IMG/VR virus record: IMGVR_UViG_3300008111_001118
DNA length: 64,000 nt
Source: a virus
Taxonomy: Duplodnaviria > Heunggongvirae > Uroviricota > Caudoviricetes
Reading direction: 5' to 3' (one strand)
Both the position numbers and the translations under genes were made by a program. Positions 5,123 to 54,978 of the stretch are shown here, one piece after another. How positions within the stretch are numbered: position 1 is the stretch's first letter; each line of letters opens with the position of its first letter. A model generated the notes under the pieces. The model made no database searches. It was not told the origin of the DNA and worked only from the letters and a program-made list of their open reading frames with translations.

Positions 5123-6956
5123 TTGGGTTACTAGTCCAAAATGCCTTCCCTTGACTAGTTTGACTGGTACTAGGTTTAATATCGTTGCCCATACTTTTCA
5201 CAAATTTGTACATTGCAGTAGCTATTCCGTTGCGTTGATATTCATCATTAACACGCAAATTGCCGGCTACCAAATATGGATCAGCCTTTTTAAATCGTTT
5301 AAACAAACCAGAAGGTTCATCGTTTCCTATAACGATAAATCTCACATATCCAATAGACTTATTATCTATAAATGCTTCAACTTTTATTTGCGGAATCATA
5401 TTACTAGGATAATGATTTGCAACTATTTTTACTTTGCCTATCTTAGTATCAACTACAGTTTCTTTATGAAAGTCTTTGTTTAATAATTCAGGATTTATGC
5501 TTTCAAAAAGTCCTATGTTAAACAAAACATTTGTGTTAGATTCATTTAGTTTAAAGAACGGACCTTGGATGATACTTTTGCTTTTTTCTTTTACTAATCC
5601 TCTATTGAGATTTTTCTTAAATTCATCTGTGATGTGTCTATTTCGCAGTCCTTGACTAAAGAACAAGTGCGTTTCTACAGGATTGTTCCCGAACACCTTT
5701 GCTATTGCTGCCATGCGATTTCTGCCTTCATGCCCTACTACTCTAGCAGGCATAGAAAAATCACCATTTTCCCACGATTCTGGTATTTCTATTCTAAGGA
5801 AAGGACTGCCGATAGTGCCGCCTTGTTCGAGATGTTGGGCTATTTTTTCAGAAGGTTCACCGTCTAATGGTGCTGCTAGATCTATAAAATGCTTAGGAGT
5901 CATAGTCACACGCAAACCTAAATAATCGACTTCTTGGTTGTTAGGAACAGCACCCCATCCATTTTTATTGTCAATTATATCTACATTGGTATTGACACCT
6001 TTTACAATACGATCGTCTTCTTTAAAAAACTCATTTTCTCTTATTGTAAGACGACCTTGCTTTGTTAAAAATTCTTGATATTTTGGATCAGAGTGTTTCA
6101 TTACAAAATTTATAGAACTATCTTTGTTAAAATCGTTGAACGTATAAAAATTGGTACTTGGCCCAATAAACTGATATTCGTCGAAAGTTTTGTGATAAAT
6201 TACAGAATCAATTCTTCTAAAAAATAATCCTCGGCCGTATCTAGATTGAGAAAATTTGTCAACTACGTAATATCGTTTTTCTATTTTAACAATATCGTTT
6301 ATTTCAATATCTTCTCGCCAGTTTTCTGTATTTTCTTTGACTTGTTTCTTACTCTTGCTGTCTTCATAAACTGGATTGTTATTGTTTAACTTTGATTCTT
6401 TATAGTACGGATTTTTTGGATCAGTGTCTCCGGTAACATCTGGCCACCAATCTAACTCGAAACGTTTTCCATCAGCAAACATCTTCTTCATTGACTTGAT
6501 GCGCTTTTCATATTCGGCTTTCGAAGGTTTAACATTGTTTTCAACAACGTCAAGCACATATTGTATAGTAACTGCATTGGCACTTAAACTTGCACATCTT
6601 GCACCCACTTCACCTTTTAGATGATCTATTAAAATACTTTCGCTGCTTTTTGCCAAGTCGTCGGAAAGATCATGCGGTACTCTCAAGTCAACATAGGAAT
6701 AAACATAATCGTAGTGTGGTAGTGGTGACGAGTGTAGAATGTATTCGTCCAACACTTCGATTCTTTTAAATCCGTCTTTGTTATACCAAATTGCTCGTTT
6801 ATGTGTTAATTCATCTGGATTTTTAAAAAACTTTACCAGTTGTTTTACATATCCGGCAGGTTCGTCATTTTTCCATTGAGATAAAACATTTAAAGATTCA
6901 GCAACTTTTTTTCCACGCTTATCGTTTACTTCAAACAGATCTTGTATTTTCATCAT
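5010..6956 (-). CDS. large hypothetical protein (648 aa) with T4-like capsid-targeting N-terminus (MMKIQDLFE) and C-terminal GNAT-like motif
   Basis: N-terminus resembles T4 internal-protein targeting peptides ending in (L/I)-x-E; C-terminal region has an acetyl-CoA-binding-like Q/R-x-x-G-x-A motif (YQRNGIATAMY). Confidence 0.5.
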   Translation of the reverse strand: MMKIQDLFEVNDKRGKKVAESLNVLSQWKNDEPAGYVKQLVKFFKNPDELTHKRAIWYNKDGFKRIEVLDEYILHSSPLPHYDYVYSYVDLRVPHDLSDDLAKSSESILIDHLKGEVGARCASLSANAVTIQYVLDVVENNVKPSKAEYEKRIKSMKKMFADGKRFELDWWPDVTGDTDPKNPYYKESKLNNNNPVYEDSKSKKQVKENTENWREDIEINDIVKIEKRYYVVDKFSQSRYGRGLFFRRIDSVIYHKTFDEYQFIGPSTNFYTFNDFNKDSSINFVMKHSDPKYQEFLTKQGRLTIRENEFFKEDDRIVKGVNTNVDIIDNKNGWGAVPNNQEVDYLGLRVTMTPKHFIDLAAPLDGEPSEKIAQHLEQGGTIGSPFLRIEIPESWENGDFSMPARVVGHEGRNRMAAIAKVFGNNPVETHLFFSQGLRNRHITDEFKKNLNRGLVKEKSKSIIQGPFFKLNESNTNVLFNIGLFESINPELLNKDFHKETVVDTKIGKVKIVANHYPSNMIPQIKVEAFIDNKSIGYVRFIVIGNDEPSGLFKRFKKADPYLVAGNLRVNDEYQRNGIATAMYKFVKSMGNDIKPSTSQTSQGKAFWTSNPNESVEPKYSLREWAAMQGGHAVEEIPKKRKPFDWNKY

Positions 6957-48601: not shown

Positions 48602-49923
48602 AGTTTTTCTCCAGGTGCAAATCCACGGAATGTTTTGAAACGTGGAAAACGTAGGCTGTAGGTGCCATCTTGATTCTGTGTTACTGCATCAGCCCTAACT
48701 TCCACAAGAGATCCAGCAAGACTATCACGGTCAGCCCAAAAAGCAATACGCTGCTCGTCTGTGAGACCGCTACCAACATTGACCCTAATATCTTTCCCGT
48801 CATCCTGCCCAGCGCATACCAAAGCCCCGAGTCTTCCTGTGTTTTTTCCTGTGCCTTCTTCATAGCCAACAATCTCCAGTGTTACTTCGATAAACGGTTT
48901 TGCTTTAAGCCAACTTGCACTGCGCTTGCACTCGTAAGGTGCATCAACGTCTTTGATCATCACACCTTCATACCCACCGTCTACAGCCGCCTTATTAAGT
49001 GCTACAAAGCGTAGGTAGCCTTCTGCGGTATCCAGGTCTACAGTTTCCCAACCCAGTGCTGTAACGTGCTGTAGCGTGTTTGCGTGGTCTTCAACCCAAT
49101 GACTGACCATTTCACTGCGAACACTTTGGTTAAAACTATAAACTTTGTTCTTAAAATTACCCAGCGGAATAATGTCAAACAAGTTCAACACTGCATCCTT
49201 TGCATCGACATCTTTCTTACGCTGCACTTGACGCATAAGATCTTGAAAACTAGCACTCATAATTTCGCCATCAAGTACCAACGGATACGGTGCAGGATGA
49301 TCTTTCAACACAGCACGAATTTCTTCAATGATGTGATCAAAGTTATGAAACTGTTTGCCATTACGACTAAACATTTCAATGCTTTTACCGTGTACATCAT
49401 TGATAACAACGAGCACACGAACGCCGTCTAGTTTAACTTCAATCTGTTTCTTGCCACGCATTTTATCTTCGTGGTTAGCACTGTCGTGAGCAAGTTGGCA
49501 TTCAAATACCGGCACTTGATACTCAGGGTGTTTTTTACACACTTTGTTAACAGTTTTTTCGCTCATGCCACAACGCAGGTCTTTGATAAGAATACGACGA
49601 TACCAATCATTCCACTGTCGCTGTGTAGCAACGTTCATTGCTAGTTCGATAGCATCACGTGCAGCATGACCTGTTAAGTTTCGATACTGCAAATCTTGGG
49701 CAAGTTTCAGGAAAACAGTCCACGGTAGCCCTTGGCCTGCATCCGCGTTTTTAAATGGCACCTGCTTGACACCGTATGTGATCAATGGGTCCAGTGCCAT
49801 TCTAACACCTTCAAAAAACTCGTCAAGACCTTCTGCAACTGCTGCCGCTAGAATTGCTTCTTTGTCCAGTCGGCTGTTGTGATTTTCAAGGTTGCGAATA
49901 ATCACGTCTGGTTGTGTACGCAT
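48598..49923 (-). CDS. ATP-dependent DNA ligase
   Basis: KLDGVR nucleotidyltransferase motif I (EVKLDGVRVLV) and overall size/motif order of ATP-dependent ligases. Confidence 0.8.
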   Translation of the reverse strand: MRTQPDVIIRNLENHNSRLDKEAILAAAVAEGLDEFFEGVRMALDPLITYGVKQVPFKNADAGQGLPWTVFLKLAQDLQYRNLTGHAARDAIELAMNVATQRQWNDWYRRILIKDLRCGMSEKTVNKVCKKHPEYQVPVFECQLAHDSANHEDKMRGKKQIEVKLDGVRVLVVINDVHGKSIEMFSRNGKQFHNFDHIIEEIRAVLKDHPAPYPLVLDGEIMSASFQDLMRQVQRKKDVDAKDAVLNLFDIIPLGNFKNKVYSFNQSVRSEMVSHWVEDHANTLQHVTALGWETVDLDTAEGYLRFVALNKAAVDGGYEGVMIKDVDAPYECKRSASWLKAKPFIEVTLEIVGYEEGTGKNTGRLGALVCAGQDDGKDIRVNVGSGLTDEQRIAFWADRDSLAGSLVEVRADAVTQNQDGTYSLRFPRFKTFRGFAPGEKL

Positions 49924-49945
49924 GGAAACTCCTTTGGTTAGTTTG

Positions 49946-49973
49946 ATTATAACTTAAACGATATTTTAGTCAA
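49946..49973 (-). promoter_or_regulatory. sigma70-like promoter (TTGACT-N16-TATAAT) for the ligase gene
   Basis: Read from the sequence; overlaps the 3' flank of the upstream terminator hairpin. Confidence 0.5.
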
Positions 49974-49976
49974 GAG

Positions 49977-50003
49977 AAAAGGCACCCTAGGGTGCCTTTT
50001 GTA
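49977..50003 (-). terminator. rho-independent terminator downstream of tRNA-Leu(TAA)
   Basis: AAAAGGCACCC-tag-GGGTGCCTTTT hairpin with U-tracts on both strands. Confidence 0.6.
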
Positions 50004-50013
50004 TCTGTTGCGT

Positions 50014-50097
50014 TGGTGCCCACTGCCGGACTCGAACCGGCACTCCAGAGGAAGCAAATTTTAAGTCTGCCGCGGCTACCAATTTCACCAAGCGGGC
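50014..50097 (-). tRNA. tRNA-Leu(TAA), class II
   Basis: Hand-folded: acceptor GCCCGCT/AGTGGGC, anticodon stem GCAGA/TTTGC with loop CTTAAAA, long variable arm, T-arm CCGG-TTCGAGT-CCGG, encoded CCA. Confidence 0.8.
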
Positions 50098-50100
50098 ATT

Positions 50101-50496
50101 TTATTTTTTATACTTATCACCGGTAACTTGACCGGCACTCATTATAATAACTGGAATACGTTTAATATTCATTTCACGAAATGCAAAGTAACGATGATGT
50201 CCATCAATTACTTGATAAGTGTTTTCTCGTGGAATTCTTCTTACTAGTATTGGAGGTATCTTGCTGATATCTCGTTTTATCTGTTTTTTAATACTGTTTA
50301 TATTTGCTCTAGCATCAACATCTTTAGTATCACCTTTACCGTCTCCTTCGAATCTAGATCGGATCTGATTCATAGGCATTACAACAACTCGGTTGTATTC
50401 GTTTTTAAAATCAGTTACATTGGCACCGACAGTACTGTCACCAGTTTCAGGATCAACGTCTTTGGTTATTTTTGCTACTACTTCAAATATTTTCAT
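50101..50496 (-). CDS. ParB-like nuclease domain protein (about 131 aa from the internal Met MKIFEV)
   Basis: DGHHRYFAF motif of the ParB/sulfiredoxin fold. The ORF as called (to 50553) would overlap tRNA-Leu(CAA), so the internal start is preferred. Confidence 0.5.
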   Translation of the reverse strand: MKIFEVVAKITKDVDPETGDSTVGANVTDFKNEYNRVVVMPMNQIRSRFEGDGKGDTKDVDARANINSIKKQIKRDISKIPPILVRRIPRENTYQVIDGHHRYFAFREMNIKRIPVIIMSAGQVTGDKYKK

Positions 50497-50512
50497 ATAG
50501 TATTTATTATTT

Positions 50513-50595
50513 GGTGCCCCAGGAGGGACTTGAACCCCCACGCCTTGCGGCAAAAGATTTTGAATCTTCCGTGGCTACCATTACACCACTAGGGC
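50513..50595 (-). tRNA. tRNA-Leu(CAA), class II
   Basis: Hand-folded: acceptor GCCCTAG/CTGGGGC, anticodon loop TTCAAAA, long variable arm, T-loop TTCAAGT, CCA encoded. Confidence 0.75.
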
Positions 50596-50820
50596 AAAGT
50601 GTTGTTTAAAGGTGGCATCAGCACTTGTCTAGTACAAATTTATCGGGCCCAGCTGCGTTCAAACAACTATGTGTCTGTTTTTACACCTACGTAAGGACTA
50701 GAATGTTTTTTATCCTTACTCCTTTAAACAATATAGTAATTAGCCTAGCAATAACCTATAGCATATCGCCGGGTCGCGGTCGACTCACTTCCCTTACACC
50801 CCCAAGGTGCAGGCTAAAAT

Positions 50821-50896
50821 TGGTTGCGGTGGGCAGGACTCGAACCTGCGATTTACTGGTTATGAGCCAGTCGAGATGCCGCTTCTCTACCCCGCA
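50821..50896 (-). tRNA. tRNA-Met/Ile2(CAT)
   Basis: D-stem GAGA/TCTC, anticodon stem ACTGG/CCAGT with loop CTCATAA, T-arm GCAGG-TTCGAGT-CCTGC; acceptor has one mismatch. Confidence 0.65.
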
Positions 50897-51397
50897 ATAA
50901 ACTTAACTAGTAGAACAGTCTCGGAAATGGAGTAGTCGCCTACAGCCAAATGGGTCTGTACTCGAAAACTGTTCAACTAGTTAAGTTAAAAGATATGCCA
51001 ATCCTCTTATCACTTTCCACAAACGGTACCGGTTTTTGAACTAACATATCGTTAAACTTAATTTTTGCATAGGCTGAGATTATGCCTTGCTGTAGGAGCC
51101 TTTGACCATTACCGTTAGCCTTGCGAGCCACGTTCTGTCGTTATCCACAAGAGCCTTTTACGGTCATCTTGTATCTCCCAGTGGTGCCTTTTTTGGAGAG
51201 TGGCGTTTCTCTCGTCGCACGTTGCTACTCGTCCTTCTATCCTTCGTCTGCCTTGCGAGCAGTTCACAGTCGCTAAACCGTTACGCTATCTTTCCGAACA
51301 ACTACATCAGCCTTGCGAGCATCCGTAGACCACATTCTCTTGCGAGTGTGGCATTAACCACCTTTCACAACGTACCGGGACAGTCTTTCGCTTTTGT

Positions 51398-51468
51398 TTA
51401 TCAAAGAAGGGATTGAACCTTCGCCGATTCCGTTCAATGGAATTGCTCTACCGCTGAGCTATTTGCGA
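51398..51468 (-). ncRNA. aberrant tRNA-like element (anticodon loop ATTGAAC = UGA anticodon, short variable arm, 2 mismatches in acceptor stem, no CCA)
   Basis: Good D-arm (GCTC-AGCGGTA-GAGC), perfect anticodon stem ATTCC/GGAAT, T-arm GAAGG-TTCAATC-CCTTC, but acceptor TCGCAAA vs TTTGATA pairs only 5/7. Confidence 0.4.
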
Positions 51469-52133
51469 ACCTACTTCGATGTGCTGTCCCAGTTGCTTCA
51501 CGTCTTGTTAGACGCAAAATACAACACACCGACTGTCTTTTGCCTTGCGGGCTACTCAACGTCTTTTTAAGTATCCGGGGCCTAACCCTTCCACTCTCAA
51601 GATGCTAACTTGCCTTTGCTTGCGGGCTCAGACTAGTTAACTACCTGTTAACTTTCAGCATTCGTTAGTTTGGCTGAACAGTGTTTGGGCGCCAACCCTC
51701 TTATCGCTCACCGACCGGCTCTGCGACTATCCTTTCGGACACTATTCCTAACTTACTGCCTACCGCCTTTCTACGGACGGGAGTTGCTTTCGGTACCCGA
51801 GTCAACTCTAGTTCAGGCTTGCTTAGATGGACCATTGCTGGCGCAAGTTTATAGGAAACCTTGCTTTGGGTGCATTACTGCACTTACCCTTACGTGGACG
51901 CTAAGCCGCCCATCTTACTGTGTTTACAACGATATATTGTTTATCTTATCGTCAGTCGATAGACATAGTGGTTAGCATTGCCATTTCAACTTATTGTCAG
52001 TAGCGTGTGGCCCTGTTGTTTCGCTAGGAACCACCCTAGTTACTTGACAGTGCTACTACCCAATATACCTGTGTAAACACAGTGTTTACCAAATTATCAA
52101 AGAGCGTGTAAACAACTTCTTGCTTACTTGTTT

Positions 52134-52162
52134 AATATAGTGCATGTTGCACCAAAGGTCAA
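52134..52162 (-). promoter_or_regulatory. sigma70-like promoter (TTGACC-N17-TATATT) firing leftward into the 1.3-kb ORF-free region
   Basis: Read from the sequence; copy 1 of a duplicated promoter-leader module (see 54979-55008). Confidence 0.55.
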
Positions 52163-52191
52163 CCACTTTTTTATCTTTTTTTATTTTTTTT

Positions 52192-52266
52192 TGGAGCGGG
52201 TAACGGGATTCGAACCCGTGACCTGGTGCTTGGCAAGCAGCCGCTCTACCCCTGAGCTACACCCGC
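52192..52266 (-). tRNA. tRNA-Gly(GCC)
   Basis: Acceptor GCGGGTG/TACCCGC, anticodon loop TTGCCAA, T-arm ACGGG-TTCGAAT-CCCGT, CCA encoded; one C-C mismatch in the anticodon stem. Confidence 0.7.
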
Positions 52267-52313
52267 ATTTTAAGTTTGTAGTGATTATTAAATTCACTAT
52301 GTAGACAATTTAA

Positions 52314-52389
52314 TGGTGCCGGTAGAGAGATTCGAACTCCCCACCTGATGATTACTAATCAACTGCTCTACCAAATGAGCTATACCGGC
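52314..52389 (-). tRNA. tRNA with anticodon loop TTAGTAA (AGT anticodon, nominally Thr; unusual A34)
   Basis: Perfect acceptor GCCGGTA/TACCGGC, D-arm GCTC-ATTTGGTA-GAGC, T-loop TTCGAAT, CCA encoded; one T-T mismatch in the anticodon stem. Confidence 0.6.
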
Positions 52390-53093
52390 AAATTATTATA
52401 AAATGGAATAACCACATTTTCAGCAAATGCTTCGTGTTGTTTTCCTGAAGGATGATCATCTCCCGGTGTAGGAAAGTCGTTGGGCATGTTATCTCTAGAC
52501 CATTCGTAGCAACCCTTAACTGGTACAAATCTTGTCCAGTCTACCATTTCTTTTAAATATTCTGTTTGCATAGTATTGACATTACTCTCATCAAATGTGC
52601 TTTGATTCATATTACTAAAAAAGTATTTTATATTATTTACTTTCAAGTAATTTTGCAATCTTAGAATATTTTCATAGGTTCTGATTAAATCAAATGTGTT
52701 GTTTGTATAAATCTTATAATGATTCGTTGAAAATCGACTAGGAAAACTTGCATTAATCAATACCCATTTGCCTGCAGGATCATTTTTTGGCCACGCTAGG
52801 TGACTGGCTTCGGATATGTTTGGCTTTGATAATTGATTTAATACAAATGAGTTTTCTACATAAAATGATGCTCTGTTGGCAGCACTCCACATAACCCCAA
52901 CTACTATATCTTTCGATTCTACATTGTTTTTGAATAAATCATTAACTTGATAAATTGCACGTCTAGCGATATGCTCATTTCCATTACTGCCCAATCCCAT
53001 TGGGTAATGGGCATATTTCATTTTTTTTGCAAAATGAAAGGGCCAAGTATGATTGTCGTATGTAAATGAGCATCCGCTTGATACAAAGTGCAT
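52380..53093 (-). CDS. hypothetical protein (237 aa) embedded in the tRNA array
   Basis: ORF flanked by tRNAs on both sides; no recognised motif. Confidence 0.5.
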   Translation of the reverse strand: MHFVSSGCSFTYDNHTWPFHFAKKMKYAHYPMGLGSNGNEHIARRAIYQVNDLFKNNVESKDIVVGVMWSAANRASFYVENSFVLNQLSKPNISEASHLAWPKNDPAGKWVLINASFPSRFSTNHYKIYTNNTFDLIRTYENILRLQNYLKVNNIKYFFSNMNQSTFDESNVNTMQTEYLKEMVDWTRFVPVKGCYEWSRDNMPNDFPTPGDDHPSGKQHEAFAENVVIPFYNNLPV

Positions 53094-53185
53094 ATTTTAT
53101 TTATCCCTCATATAGATCTTCGTAATCAATATCGTCATCGTCTTCTAACCAATCGGTATCGGACGAAGTTTGATCAACAGTTTAA

Positions 53186-53262
53186 TGGTCGGAGTGACAG
53201 GATTTGAACCCACGACATCTTGGTCCCAAACCAAGCGCTCTACCAAACTGAGCTACACTCCG
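53186..53262 (-). tRNA. tRNA-Pro(TGG)
   Basis: Acceptor CGGAGTG/CACTCCG, anticodon stem CTTGG/CCAAG with loop TTTGGGA, T-loop TTCAAAT, CCA. Confidence 0.8.
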
Positions 53263-53268
53263 ATATAC

Positions 53269-53344
53269 TGGCTGGGAAGGGTGGATTCGAACCACCAACC
53301 AACGGATTCAAAGTCCGGTACTCTACCAATTGAGCTACTTCCCA
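53269..53344 (-). tRNA. tRNA-Gln(TTG)
   Basis: U1:A72 acceptor TGGGAAG/CTTCCCA (typical of Gln), anticodon loop CTTTGAA, T-arm GGTGG-TTCGAAT-CCACC. Confidence 0.8.
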
Positions 53345-53350
53345 ACATTT

Positions 53351-53432
53351 TGGTGCGGATAGAGGGACTCGAACCCCCACGCTTACGCACTAGTTCCTAA
53401 GACTAGCGTGGCTACCATTACACCATATCCGC
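53351..53432 (-). tRNA. tRNA-Leu(TAG), class II
   Basis: Acceptor GCGGATA/TATCCGC, anticodon stem CTAGT/ACTAG with loop CTTAGGA, long variable arm. Confidence 0.8.
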
Positions 53433-53437
53433 ATTAA

Positions 53438-53513
53438 TGGTGCCCCCAGCAGGACTTGAACCCGCGACCCCCTGATTACAAATCAGGTGCTCTACCAGCT
53501 GAGCTATAAGGGC
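53438..53513 (-). tRNA. tRNA-Thr(TGT)
   Basis: Anticodon stem CCTGA/TCAGG with loop TTTGTAA, T-arm GCGGG-TTCAAGT-CCTGC, CCA. Confidence 0.8.
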
Positions 53514-53523
53514 AAAAACTTTT

Positions 53524-53597
53524 TGGAGCGGGTAACGAGATTCGAACTCGTGACAAGAGCTTGGAAGGCTCGCATGTTACCGCTACACCATACCCGC
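53524..53597 (-). tRNA. tRNA-Gly(TCC)
   Basis: Acceptor GCGGGTA/TACCCGC, anticodon loop CTTCCAA, T-loop TTCGAAT, CCA. Confidence 0.8.
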
Positions 53598-53604
53598 ATT
53601 ATAT

Positions 53605-53680
53605 TGGCGACCTGTACCGGGATCGAACCGGTGTTCTTCTGCGTGACAGGCAGACGTATTAACCACTTTACCAACAGGCC
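53605..53680 (-). tRNA. tRNA-Asp(GTC)
   Basis: Anticodon stem TCTGC/GCAGA with loop CTGTCAC, G73 discriminator, T-loop TTCGATC, CCA. Confidence 0.8.
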
Positions 53681-53870
53681 AAAAGCATCACACACGGCTT
53701 ACAAGTTCCGTCCCACCACTATGTGAAAGGTGTGATGCAACACTGTATACTACGCCGTTCCAAACCAACATCTAGTGTTGATATGCTATTTAAAGCCACG
53801 CACTGCTATTTCAAACAGTTACTCACGATGCTATGCTTACGCTACTAGGAGGTTCACAGTGTGTTTATTA

Positions 53871-53958
53871 TGGCGGAAGCGGTGAGATTCGAACTCACGG
53901 TACCTTGCGGTACGCTGGTTTTCAAGACCAGAGCCATCAACCACTCGGCCACACTTCC
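53871..53958 (-). tRNA. tRNA-Ser(TGA), class II
   Basis: Acceptor GGAAGTG/CGCTTCC, anticodon stem CTGGT/ACCAG with loop CTTGAAA, long variable arm, CCA. Confidence 0.8.
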
Positions 53959-53965
53959 GTATATT

Positions 53966-54041
53966 TGGCACAGGAGCAAGGACTTGAACCCTGGACATTC
54001 GGTTTTGGAGACCGACGCTCTACCAACTGAGCTACACCTGC
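53966..54041 (-). tRNA. tRNA-Trp(CCA)
   Basis: Anticodon stem TCGGT/ACCGA with loop CTCCAAA; acceptor with one mismatch and one G-U. Confidence 0.7.
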
Positions 54042-54047
54042 ATATAT

Positions 54048-54122
54048 TGGTGCGGAATGAGAGGGTCGAACTCCCGACAACCTCGGTGTAAACGAGGGGC
54101 TCTACCACTGAGCTAATTCCGC
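54048..54122 (-). tRNA. tRNA-Val(TAC)
   Basis: Acceptor GCGGAAT/ATTCCGC, anticodon stem CCTCG/CGAGG with loop TTTACAC, CCA. Confidence 0.8.
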
Positions 54123-54345
54123 ATATCACTGTTTACCGCGTGACTAGAAAACTTGCCATCAAAGCGGGATTTGTTAATTGCTTGTTAATCTCTGGGCTTC
54201 CCCGTTAATCTTCAAGTTCTTAACTGGTCTCGGACTGCAACTTTGATACCGTGTTTACTGATTGTGCAGTACTGTTCAAGTTAAACAACTTACACAATGT
54301 TCAACGCGGCTTTTCTAGCCCCTCGGAAAACAGTGATTATATTAA

Positions 54346-54421
54346 TGGTGGACCCTGCCGGGATCGAACCGGCGACATTATGCTTGCAAAGCATACGCTC
54401 TCCCAACTGAGCTAAGAGCCC
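54346..54421 (-). tRNA. tRNA-Ala(TGC)
   Basis: G3:U70 Ala identity pair present, anticodon stem TATGC/GCATA with loop TTTGCAA, CCA. Confidence 0.8.
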
Positions 54422-54427
54422 GTATAT

Positions 54428-54515
54428 TGGCGGAGCGTCTGGGAGTCGAACCCAGTCTACCCTTGCGGGTAGTGCAGATTAGCAATCTGGTGCCTTACCG
54501 TCCGGCCCACGCTCC
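54428..54515 (-). tRNA. tRNA-Ser(GCT), class II
   Basis: Acceptor GGAGCGT/ACGCTCC, anticodon loop TTGCTAA, long variable arm, CCA. Confidence 0.7.
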
Positions 54516-54522
54516 GTATATT

Positions 54523-54598
54523 TGGCTCCTCGTGCTGGGCTCGAACCAGCGACACTTTGATTAACAGTCAAATACTCTACCAACTGAGCTAACGAGGA
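54523..54598 (-). tRNA. tRNA-Asn(GTT)
   Basis: Acceptor TCCTCGT/ACGAGGA, anticodon stem TTTGA/TCAAA with loop CTGTTAA, CCA. Confidence 0.8.
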
Positions 54599-54978
54599 AC
54601 ACTAACTCTACTTACAGCTACACAGAAACTTAGCATAACGACCTCCGGACGGCCCTCTGCGAGTATATCTGTGTATGTGTAAATAAACTCTACTTACAAC
54701 TGCTAACGTGTAGGATTTGCACCTACAAGCGGACCGCCGTCCTATTTGCTACACCGCGTAGTTAAGCTGACTCGAACAGCACACCGCAACCCAACGGACC
54801 ACGGACTCGAACCGTGTTTACTTCTATTCATTAGCATGTGTAAGTAGAGTCATTCTCTACTTACCCCACAATTATCGACTTTCGTCTATGTAGGTGTTGT
54901 TTGAAGTTTCTAAACGAAACAAAACAACTGATCTAAATTTTCAAAGAGCGTGTAACTTGCGTTACTGTTTGTTTAGTT

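Follow-up and report, generated by a model that had tools for sequence, protein, structure and literature searches.

Positions 50897–52191 of a 64,000-nucleotide stretch of DNA from a virus of the class Caudoviricetes (IMG/VR record IMGVR_UViG_3300008111_001118), hereafter called the window, were found to hold what is almost certainly the gene for a GOLLD RNA, a known giant structured RNA of phages. The coding density of the window is high, and the coding is mostly on the minus strand. Within positions 50897–52191, all of the minus-strand open frames are 57 amino acids or shorter (stop to stop), and two open reading frames (ORFs) are present on the plus strand at 51102–51416 (104 amino acids) and 51670–51975 (101 amino acids). 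The GC content of the region was determined to be 44.9%, compared with 39.4% for the whole window. The GOLLD region is part of a phage tRNA island, in which 18 tRNA genes are found on the minus strand (50014–54598). Directly downstream of the region is the gene for tRNA-Met(CAU) (50821–50896, minus strand), which was identified by ARAGORN and by the Rfam tRNA model with a score of 53.7 bits, and this gene is followed by that for tRNA-Leu(CAA) (50512–50595, minus strand). The lack of minus-strand frames, the two plus-strand ORFs, and the two tRNA genes at the left end had all been described in a first-pass annotation of the window and were confirmed here. The accompanying statement that almost all other gaps are shorter than 60 nt was overstated, since gaps of 150–600 nt are seen elsewhere in the window when ORFs of 70 amino acids or more are crudely mapped, and some of these gaps are probably small genes.

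When the whole window was scanned against Rfam 15, the sole non-tRNA match was to GOLLD RNA (RF02032) on the minus strand at 51532–51071. The cmscan score was 191.8 bits (gathering score, 150; E-value, 1.6e-52), and the match extends over positions 1–416 of the 416 positions of the model. The same match was reproduced in permissive Rfam scans; apart from tRNAs, these gave only chance fragments of plastid- or Y-RNA-like type overlapping with tRNAs. The RF02032 model represents only the conserved 3′ half of GOLLD. When eight related loci were rescanned with Rfam, including those from phages DSS3_MAL1, MD18, phiCbK, and Sinorhizobium phage Phosso, all of them scored above the GOLLD threshold. GOLLD RNA was reportedly described by Weinberg et al. 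in 2009, and the copy in the window is a further member of this family. The best overall explanation of the locus, to which we assign a probability of about 0.9, is a GOLLD-family RNA that would, by homology, form a cage.

The relatives used for comparison were gathered from IMG/VR contigs that share the DNA ligase of the window and by means of a pattern search for a conserved motif of the 3′ domain. This procedure provided 25 non-redundant full-length homologues that are 55–95% identical to the window and include DSS3_MAL1 and Sinorhizobium Phosso; MD18 also aligns (hmm 93–866) and is outside the 25-sequence set. IMG/VR viral contigs of up to 382 kb carry a ligase that is 87% identical to that of the window. 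Among cultured phages there is no close relative: the ATP-dependent DNA ligase of the window shares no more than 36% identity with that of any cultured phage, and a megablast search with 24 kb of the window gave only tRNA-sized matches. No relatives were found when they were sought through the neighboring gene for a DUF6071 protein. The block that is retained in distant relatives runs on the minus strand from approximately 51929 to approximately 51058 (~870 nt) and is composed of two domains. The blastn and nhmmer matches stop at 51054–51063, and the block ends with a conserved, AUGCAAAA-like 3′ tail (51058–51070, minus strand) that follows the terminal hairpin.

The 3′ domain (51071–51532, minus strand) is the part covered by RF02032. 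In an alignment of positions 51535–51060 (alignment A2), 117 pairs were predicted and 82 of these exhibit compensatory changes. Pairing was found in 96.9% of the cells, compared with 38–43% when the 3′ partners were slid, and none of 500 shuffles reached as high a value. Three long-range helices of this domain correspond to covarying pairs listed for the env-38 GOLLD in Supplementary Table 3 of Kretsch et al. The helix that closes the variable linker (51491–51483 with 51385–51376, minus strand; A2 helix 3) contains nine pairs, of which four have compensatory changes, is 97.3% paired, and corresponds to env-38 pairs 467–471:555–559. The pseudoknot annotated by Rfam (51375–51367 with 51225–51217, minus strand; A2 helix 6) is 99.6% paired with compensatory changes at 7/9 pairs and corresponds to env-38 pairs 562–569:709–716. 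The third helix (51362–51357 with 51186–51181, minus strand) shows compensatory changes at three positions among the 25 sequences and corresponds to env-38 pairs 576–580:743–747.

The sequence CTTGCG[AG]G occurs six times on the plus strand of the region, at 51120, 51252, 51312, 51339, 51544, and 51619. Only seven copies are found on the plus strand of the entire 64 kb, and there are none on the other strand. In shuffled versions of the region CTTGCG is expected 0.34 times, and the maximum in 2000 shuffles was four. On the minus strand each of the six copies forms the CGCAAG loop of a hairpin that is closed by a covarying helix. Four of these C-GCAA-G loops are located in the 3′ domain (51125–51120, 51257–51252, 51317–51312, and 51344–51339, minus strand), where they cap A2 helices 19/20, 13, 9, and 7, respectively. 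The other two belong to the 5′ domain and are found in the hairpins at 51552–51542 and 51626–51619. The first-pass annotation had placed the six copies within 0–4 nt of the plus-strand positions given above and had read them as GNRA-tetraloop hairpins, and the covariation of the closing helices shows that reading to be correct.

The 5′ domain (51533–51929, minus strand) is approximately 400 nt in length and contains 22 predicted helices. Its fold was determined with RNAalifold from an alignment of the 25 sequences over positions 51932–51528 (alignment A1). There are 91 predicted pairs, 72 of which show compensatory changes. Standard pairs were found in 94.7% of the cells, compared with 32–41% when the 3′ partners were slid by 1–3 columns. 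The covariation score was 0.644 for the true alignment and no higher than 0.106 for the slid ones, and 0/500 shuffles reached 0.644. This domain also carries a near-invariant hairpin with a GAAA loop (51738–51731). A long structured non-coding RNA on the minus strand, which the first-pass annotation had proposed together with an Rfam scan, a search for covariation in homologues, and a comparison of conservation at the RNA and protein levels as checks, is thus supported by the Rfam match above threshold and by the compensatory changes in both domains. That annotation did not name the GOLLD family, and it missed the tRNA-shaped element in the linker that is described below.

A sigma-70-type promoter (TTGACC-N17-TATATT; 52134–52162, minus strand) was located by a consensus scan with a 10/12 match and is preceded by an A-rich tract at 52163–52191. 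A leftward promoter of this type had previously been proposed for the right edge of the region, and a counterpart (TTGAC-N16–18-TAnnnT) was found upstream of the GOLLD core in 17 of the 25 homologues. The promoter hexamers are retained in the nearest relatives while the spacer between them has diverged. The distance from the –10 hexamer to the core is 35–61 nt in nine homologues and 171–246 nt in the subclade that contains the window. Transcription is predicted to start near 52127.

The leader between the predicted start and the core (51930–52127, minus strand) begins with a hairpin at approximately 52127–52108, which is followed by the motif GCUCUUUGA (52105–52097) and a 23-bp stem. In the homologues that possess GCUCUUUGA, the motif is found approximately 30 nt after the –10 hexamer. 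The stem, in which 52083–52061 pairs with 51939–51917 at 87% complementarity, has 121 nt between its arms and reaches to the 5′ edge of the GOLLD core. The leader fold was calculated to be –66.1 kcal/mol with a z-score of –3.6. Four of the related loci (L001, L098, L092, and L093) keep the stem with a different sequence, and the members with short leaders lack it, from which we infer an insertion specific to the subclade of the window. The ~190 nt between promoter and core are conserved in the nearest relatives only. The stem-loop at 51940–52060, with inverted repeats of 20–25 bp at its ends, may represent a small mobile insertion or the remains of a tRNA, and possible GGTTCGATTCC-like T-arm remnants were observed inside the leader stem-loops of L098, L092, L093, and L001. 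The sequence TGTTTACA was considered as a regulatory motif of the whole window and was rejected, since its 10 matches are not significant against the 6.9 expected; it is part of the arms of the leader stem.

The trailer (50897–51057, minus strand) contains two hairpins between GOLLD and tRNA-Met. The first is located at approximately 51050–50993, and the second is a long stem of ~21 bp at 50987–50900 that abuts the 5′ end of tRNA-Met. The inverted repeat next to tRNA-Met that was noted in the first-pass annotation is real, and the length given for it there was too short: its arms (50900–50919 and 50968–50987) are 20 nt in length and 95% complementary. The trailer fold was calculated to be –48.7 kcal/mol (z = –4.0), and the long hairpin is conserved in L001, L004, L007, and L074. 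No terminator-like site was found by a scan of the minus strand from 49900 to 54800, which makes co-transcription of GOLLD with tRNA-Met plausible, and the two are probably part of the same primary transcript.

The variable linker of the 3′ domain, which follows the first hairpin of that domain and is 61–118 nt in length among the homologues, contains a tRNA-shaped module at 51396–51469 (minus strand). ARAGORN reports this element as tRNA-Ser(UGA), and it matches the Rfam tRNA model with 52.5 bits. The module is present in 20 of the 25 sequences, including the window, and is absent from the other five. Its body is 74 nt in length and of class I, and it is mismatched at acceptor positions 2:71 and 3:70. 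Transfer RNAs for serine are of class II, and a genuine class II tRNA-Ser(UGA) is encoded elsewhere in the window at 53871–53958. Pairing in the D, anticodon, and T arms is 98–100% among the 20 homologues and is accompanied by compensatory changes; there is no variation at G18/G19 or in the T-loop, and U33 is conserved. The acceptor stem is only 65% paired, with 2:71 unpaired in 17/19 and 3:70 unpaired in 12/20. The anticodons vary among relatives (UGA, UCU, GCU, UAG, UUU, CUU, AUG, and UCA), and in four of the 20 aligned modules (L116, L098, L095, and L109) ARAGORN reads anticodons of two or four bases, with 8 nt in the loop slice. A canonical decoding tRNA is characterized by a seven-pair acceptor stem, a conserved anticodon, and a body of the fitting class, and the element at 51396–51469 differs in these properties. 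With its mismatched acceptor top and drifting anticodon, it is probably a tRNA-like module conserved in shape rather than a decoding tRNA.

A CUUCUAA loop, with UCU as the anticodon, is found in three distant members (L001, L087, and L084) and a CGUCUAA loop in L081, and the ancestor of the module may therefore have been a tRNA-Arg(UCU). Vertical descent of the module was rejected because the distances between module bodies correlate only weakly with those of the GOLLD core (r = 0.38, compared with 0.88 between the two GOLLD domains), and occasional replacement by recombination is possible. Published GOLLD RNAs sometimes carry tRNAs or pseudo-tRNAs in the linker (PMC12286853, PMC12990946, PMC6582537).

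A further alternative is that GOLLD mainly delivers or stores a phage tRNA. The linker would then hold a working tRNA, ancestrally tRNA-Arg(UCU), that is freed by RNase P and RNase Z, and the linker-closing helix would hold the two halves of GOLLD together, as in the "inhibited storage" idea of PMC12990946. The covariation of that helix, the UCU loops of the distant members, and the conserved U33, G18/G19, and T-loop speak for such a function, and GenBank labels the element as tRNA-Arg in both DSS3_MAL1 and MD18. In the window, however, the UGA loop is carried on a class I body while the true class II tRNA-Ser(UGA) is found elsewhere, the top of the acceptor stem is mostly unpaired, four of the 20 modules have non-canonical anticodons, and five of the 25 homologues do without the module. 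Moreover, the pseudo-tRNA embedded in the Mycobacterium GOLLD has no detectable expression of its own (PMC6582537). We consider tRNA delivery to be improbable as the main function of GOLLD; it is possible in the relatives with a UCU loop and unlikely for the window.

It is very improbable that a series of degenerate tRNA-like modules makes up the region instead of one large RNA, which the first-pass annotation had offered as its second option. The location in a tRNA island, the module at 51396–51469, and the possible T-arm remnants in some of the leaders are in accord with this proposal, and to that extent it stands. The rest of the RNA, however, is not tRNA-like. Only one tRNA match was found inside the region even at E ≤10, the remaining ~800 nt are made up of covarying non-tRNA helices with long-range pairings that span up to ~175 nt, and the GOLLD model is matched from end to end.

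There is only a negligible probability that the plus-strand ORFs encode small proteins rich in cysteine and leucine with the RNA structure being incidental. The two ORFs exist, and several homologues have longer antisense open frames of up to 260 amino acids, but an RNA that is rich in purines and poor in stop-forming triplets would be expected to have open frames on the opposite strand. Protein-coding antisense ORFs were rejected since neither ORF matches any Pfam family, the length of 51102–51416 differs by non-multiples of three in 16/24 homologues with in-frame stops in 11, and 51670–51975 extends into the non-conserved leader. The substitutions compensate pairs and are not codon-patterned. 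A different large structured RNA (group I or group II intron, RNase P RNA, transfer-messenger RNA (tmRNA), or ROOL, the Rumen-Originating, Ornate, Large RNA) would share the size and the ornate, GNRA-rich structure and is similarly negligible, these identities being refuted by the Rfam family scan, in which no match to these families was found at E ≤10 over 50550–52250 or at E ≤1 over 49900–54700 while GOLLD was matched at an E-value of 1e-52 or better. Introns and RNase P had been mentioned as analogies in the first-pass annotation.

The GOLLD RNAs, which often exceed 800 nt, are encoded by phages and prophages, frequently in the neighborhood of tRNA islands (PMC12286853, PMC12990946, PMC5737381). 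Two structures have been determined by cryo-electron microscopy (cryo-EM): the env-38 GOLLD is a 14-mer of D7 symmetry with a diameter of 380 Å (PDB 9MEE), and the GOLLD from S. agalactiae is a 12-mer (PDB 9L0R) (PMC12286853, PMC12990946). The contacts published for GOLLD include a bridge designated B7 (L20 with J13/15) and self-kissing loops L21a/L21b. The RNA from the window resembles these in matching the full 3′ model, in its long-range pairings, in the tRNA-like insert of its linker, in its two domains and length of ~870 nt, and in its location in a phage tRNA island. A gene for tRNA-Met adjoins GOLLD in both env-38 and the window, but env-38 is downstream of tRNA-Met whereas the GOLLD of the window is upstream. 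The window also differs from the solved GOLLDs in having an extra leader of ~190 nt, with its 23-bp stem, between promoter and core. The 5′ domains of env-38 and the window could not be aligned by either sequence or threading, which is consistent with the description of the GOLLD 5′ region in the literature as "less conserved".

Further counterparts were found in DSS3_MAL1 and MD18, from Ruegeria/Phaeobacter, and in Phosso, from Sinorhizobium, where both domains align at 55–60% identity and the linker module and the tRNA neighbors are as in the window. The module reads UCU (Arg) in DSS3_MAL1 and MD18 and UGA in the window; in Phosso it is not called by ARAGORN, and the aligned loop reads CUUCUAA. 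For the Caulobacter phiCbK group, only the 3′ half aligns with the window. In the alphaproteobacterial phages GOLLD is located beside a two-piece (permuted, alpha-type) phage tmRNA, unlike the situation in the window. This arrangement was noted at 1952–2368 in L081 (DSS3_MAL1), 1785–2200 in L082 (MD18), and 3161–3479 in L083 (phiCbK), and in GenBank the GOLLD region of these cultured phages is unannotated except for the embedded "tRNA-Arg" or "tRNA-Gly".

A tRNA-like gene is likewise present in the linker of the GOLLD from mycobacteria (Behra et al. 2019; Morgado et al. 2020, cited in PMC12990946). This GOLLD is part of a horizontally transferred tRNA array, and the embedded gene has been judged to be a pseudo-tRNA without expression of its own. 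The embedded gene there is a tRNA-Phe or pseudo-tRNA, whereas in the clade of the window (20 homologues) the three arms are under selection while the anticodon drifts. ROOL is also a large ornate RNA of phages and prophages near tRNA islands and assembles into a cage of RNA alone that contains a disordered linker (PMC12286853, PMC5737381), but there is no ROOL match in the GOLLD region.

We propose the following pathway for the GOLLD RNA of the window. Host RNA polymerase would start near 52127, and the primary transcript would continue into tRNA-Met. Long double-stranded stems are typical substrates for RNase III, and the transcript could be trimmed at the 20–23-bp stems that flank the core by an enzyme of this type and cut by RNase P at tRNA-Met. 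The mature RNA would fold into separate 5′ and 3′ domains and would then self-assemble through kissing loops and GNRA/A-minor contacts to form a closed homo-oligomeric cage, with the linkers and their tRNA-shaped modules inside. By analogy with the solved members of the family, it is fairly likely that the RNA of the window forms a multimeric nanocage.

Several observations weigh against this picture. When the 5′ domain was compared with env-38 by nhmmer, only the 3′ part was matched, using an env-38 sequence that was taken from a PDF and contains 816 rather than 833 nt. When this sequence, which is 17 nt short, was threaded on the 5′ consensus, 34/72 pairs were formed, the same as in shuffled controls. 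Both comparisons are weakened by the missing 17 nt. If a cage is formed, its cap could therefore differ, and the covariation-supported 5′ domain may have a cap architecture unlike that solved for env-38. The first hairpin and the GAAA loops resemble the P1–P13 cap domain of env-38 by eye only, and no relatives of env-38 were found in viral contigs by an exact 19-mer scan. The ~190-nt leader is absent in most relatives, which makes the mature 5′ end uncertain. Finally, transcription, the processing sites, and co-transcription with tRNA-Met are deduced from patterns in the sequence, and oligomerization from membership in the family.

Proposals in the literature for the role of the GOLLD RNAs include the encapsulation of tRNAs, ribosomes, or other partners and the inhibited storage of an embedded tRNA (PMC12990946 for the latter), and the expression of other GOLLD members rises during phage lytic growth (PMC12286853). 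We would guess that the target of the cage in lytic growth is the translation or tRNA machinery, and that the cage either presents or sequesters the module or encloses a partner related to tRNA or the ribosome. Any specific biological role must be regarded as unlikely at best. One such role, which we consider doubtful, is that the linker element is a selected tRNA mimic, with its elbow nucleotides and three arms maintained by compensatory change and its acceptor top and anticodon triplet at liberty to vary. The copies of this mimic would be suspended inside the cage, and GOLLD would serve as a multivalent display or trap for a factor recognizing the shape of tRNA. The candidate targets may include RNase P, a modification enzyme, a tRNA site of the ribosome, or a tRNA-targeting defense nuclease. 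If true, a tRNA mimic in the linker would be the first mechanistic handle for the GOLLD family.

The GOLLD RNAs are among the largest and most elaborate non-coding RNAs of bacteria and phages, and they build RNA-only cages. The class has already been described, and the copy in the window adds little to the catalog since the family model finds it directly, but a reading of the raw sequence can evidently pick out an RNA of this kind. The 25 full-length relatives reach down to 55% identity, and some of them come from culturable phages of Ruegeria, Phaeobacter, and Sinorhizobium. What is new here is a 5′-domain fold that is supported by covariation and does not align with the solved one, a dedicated and conserved promoter, and a shape-conserved, anticodon-free linker module. 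The fold, the promoter, and the picture of the linker module are usable starting points for functional experiments.

The tRNA island also contains minus-strand genes for a protein with a ParB N-terminal domain (50101–50553) and for the DUF6071 protein (52380–53093). The longest ORF call for the ParB N-terminal-domain gene overlaps tRNA-Leu(CAA), and its true start is therefore probably an internal ATG (MKIFEVV...). The spacer between tRNA-Met and tRNA-Leu(CAA) (50596–50820, minus strand) is 225 nt in length, ORF-free, and 96% identical to L001, whereas the GOLLD of L001 is only 83% identical to that of the window. A core of ~130 nt (~50602–50735) of this spacer recurs in L004, L007, L074, L092, and L031 and contains the invariant motifs UCUAGU...ACUAGA and GCUGGGCCCG together with an 11-bp closing stem. 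The spacer has no Rfam match, a fold z-score of –3.0, and weak covariation among six sequences.

Two further ORF-free gaps on the minus strand of the tRNA array, at 53681–53870 (190 nt) and 54123–54345 (223 nt), are likewise without an Rfam match. Conservation of the first gap in L001 amounts to 89% over a stretch of 125 nt. None of the fetched loci matches the second, which forms a long closed fold of –66 kcal/mol, a value that was calculated without a shuffle control. The island also encodes a tRNA-Thr with the anticodon AGU (52314–52389), which has A at position 34; to our knowledge, tRNAs with A34 are unusual in bacteria apart from tRNA-Arg(ACG). This tRNA-Thr(AGU) is retained among related phages, with counterparts at 5403–5476 in L001, 2464–2539 in L031, and 4916–4989 in L074.

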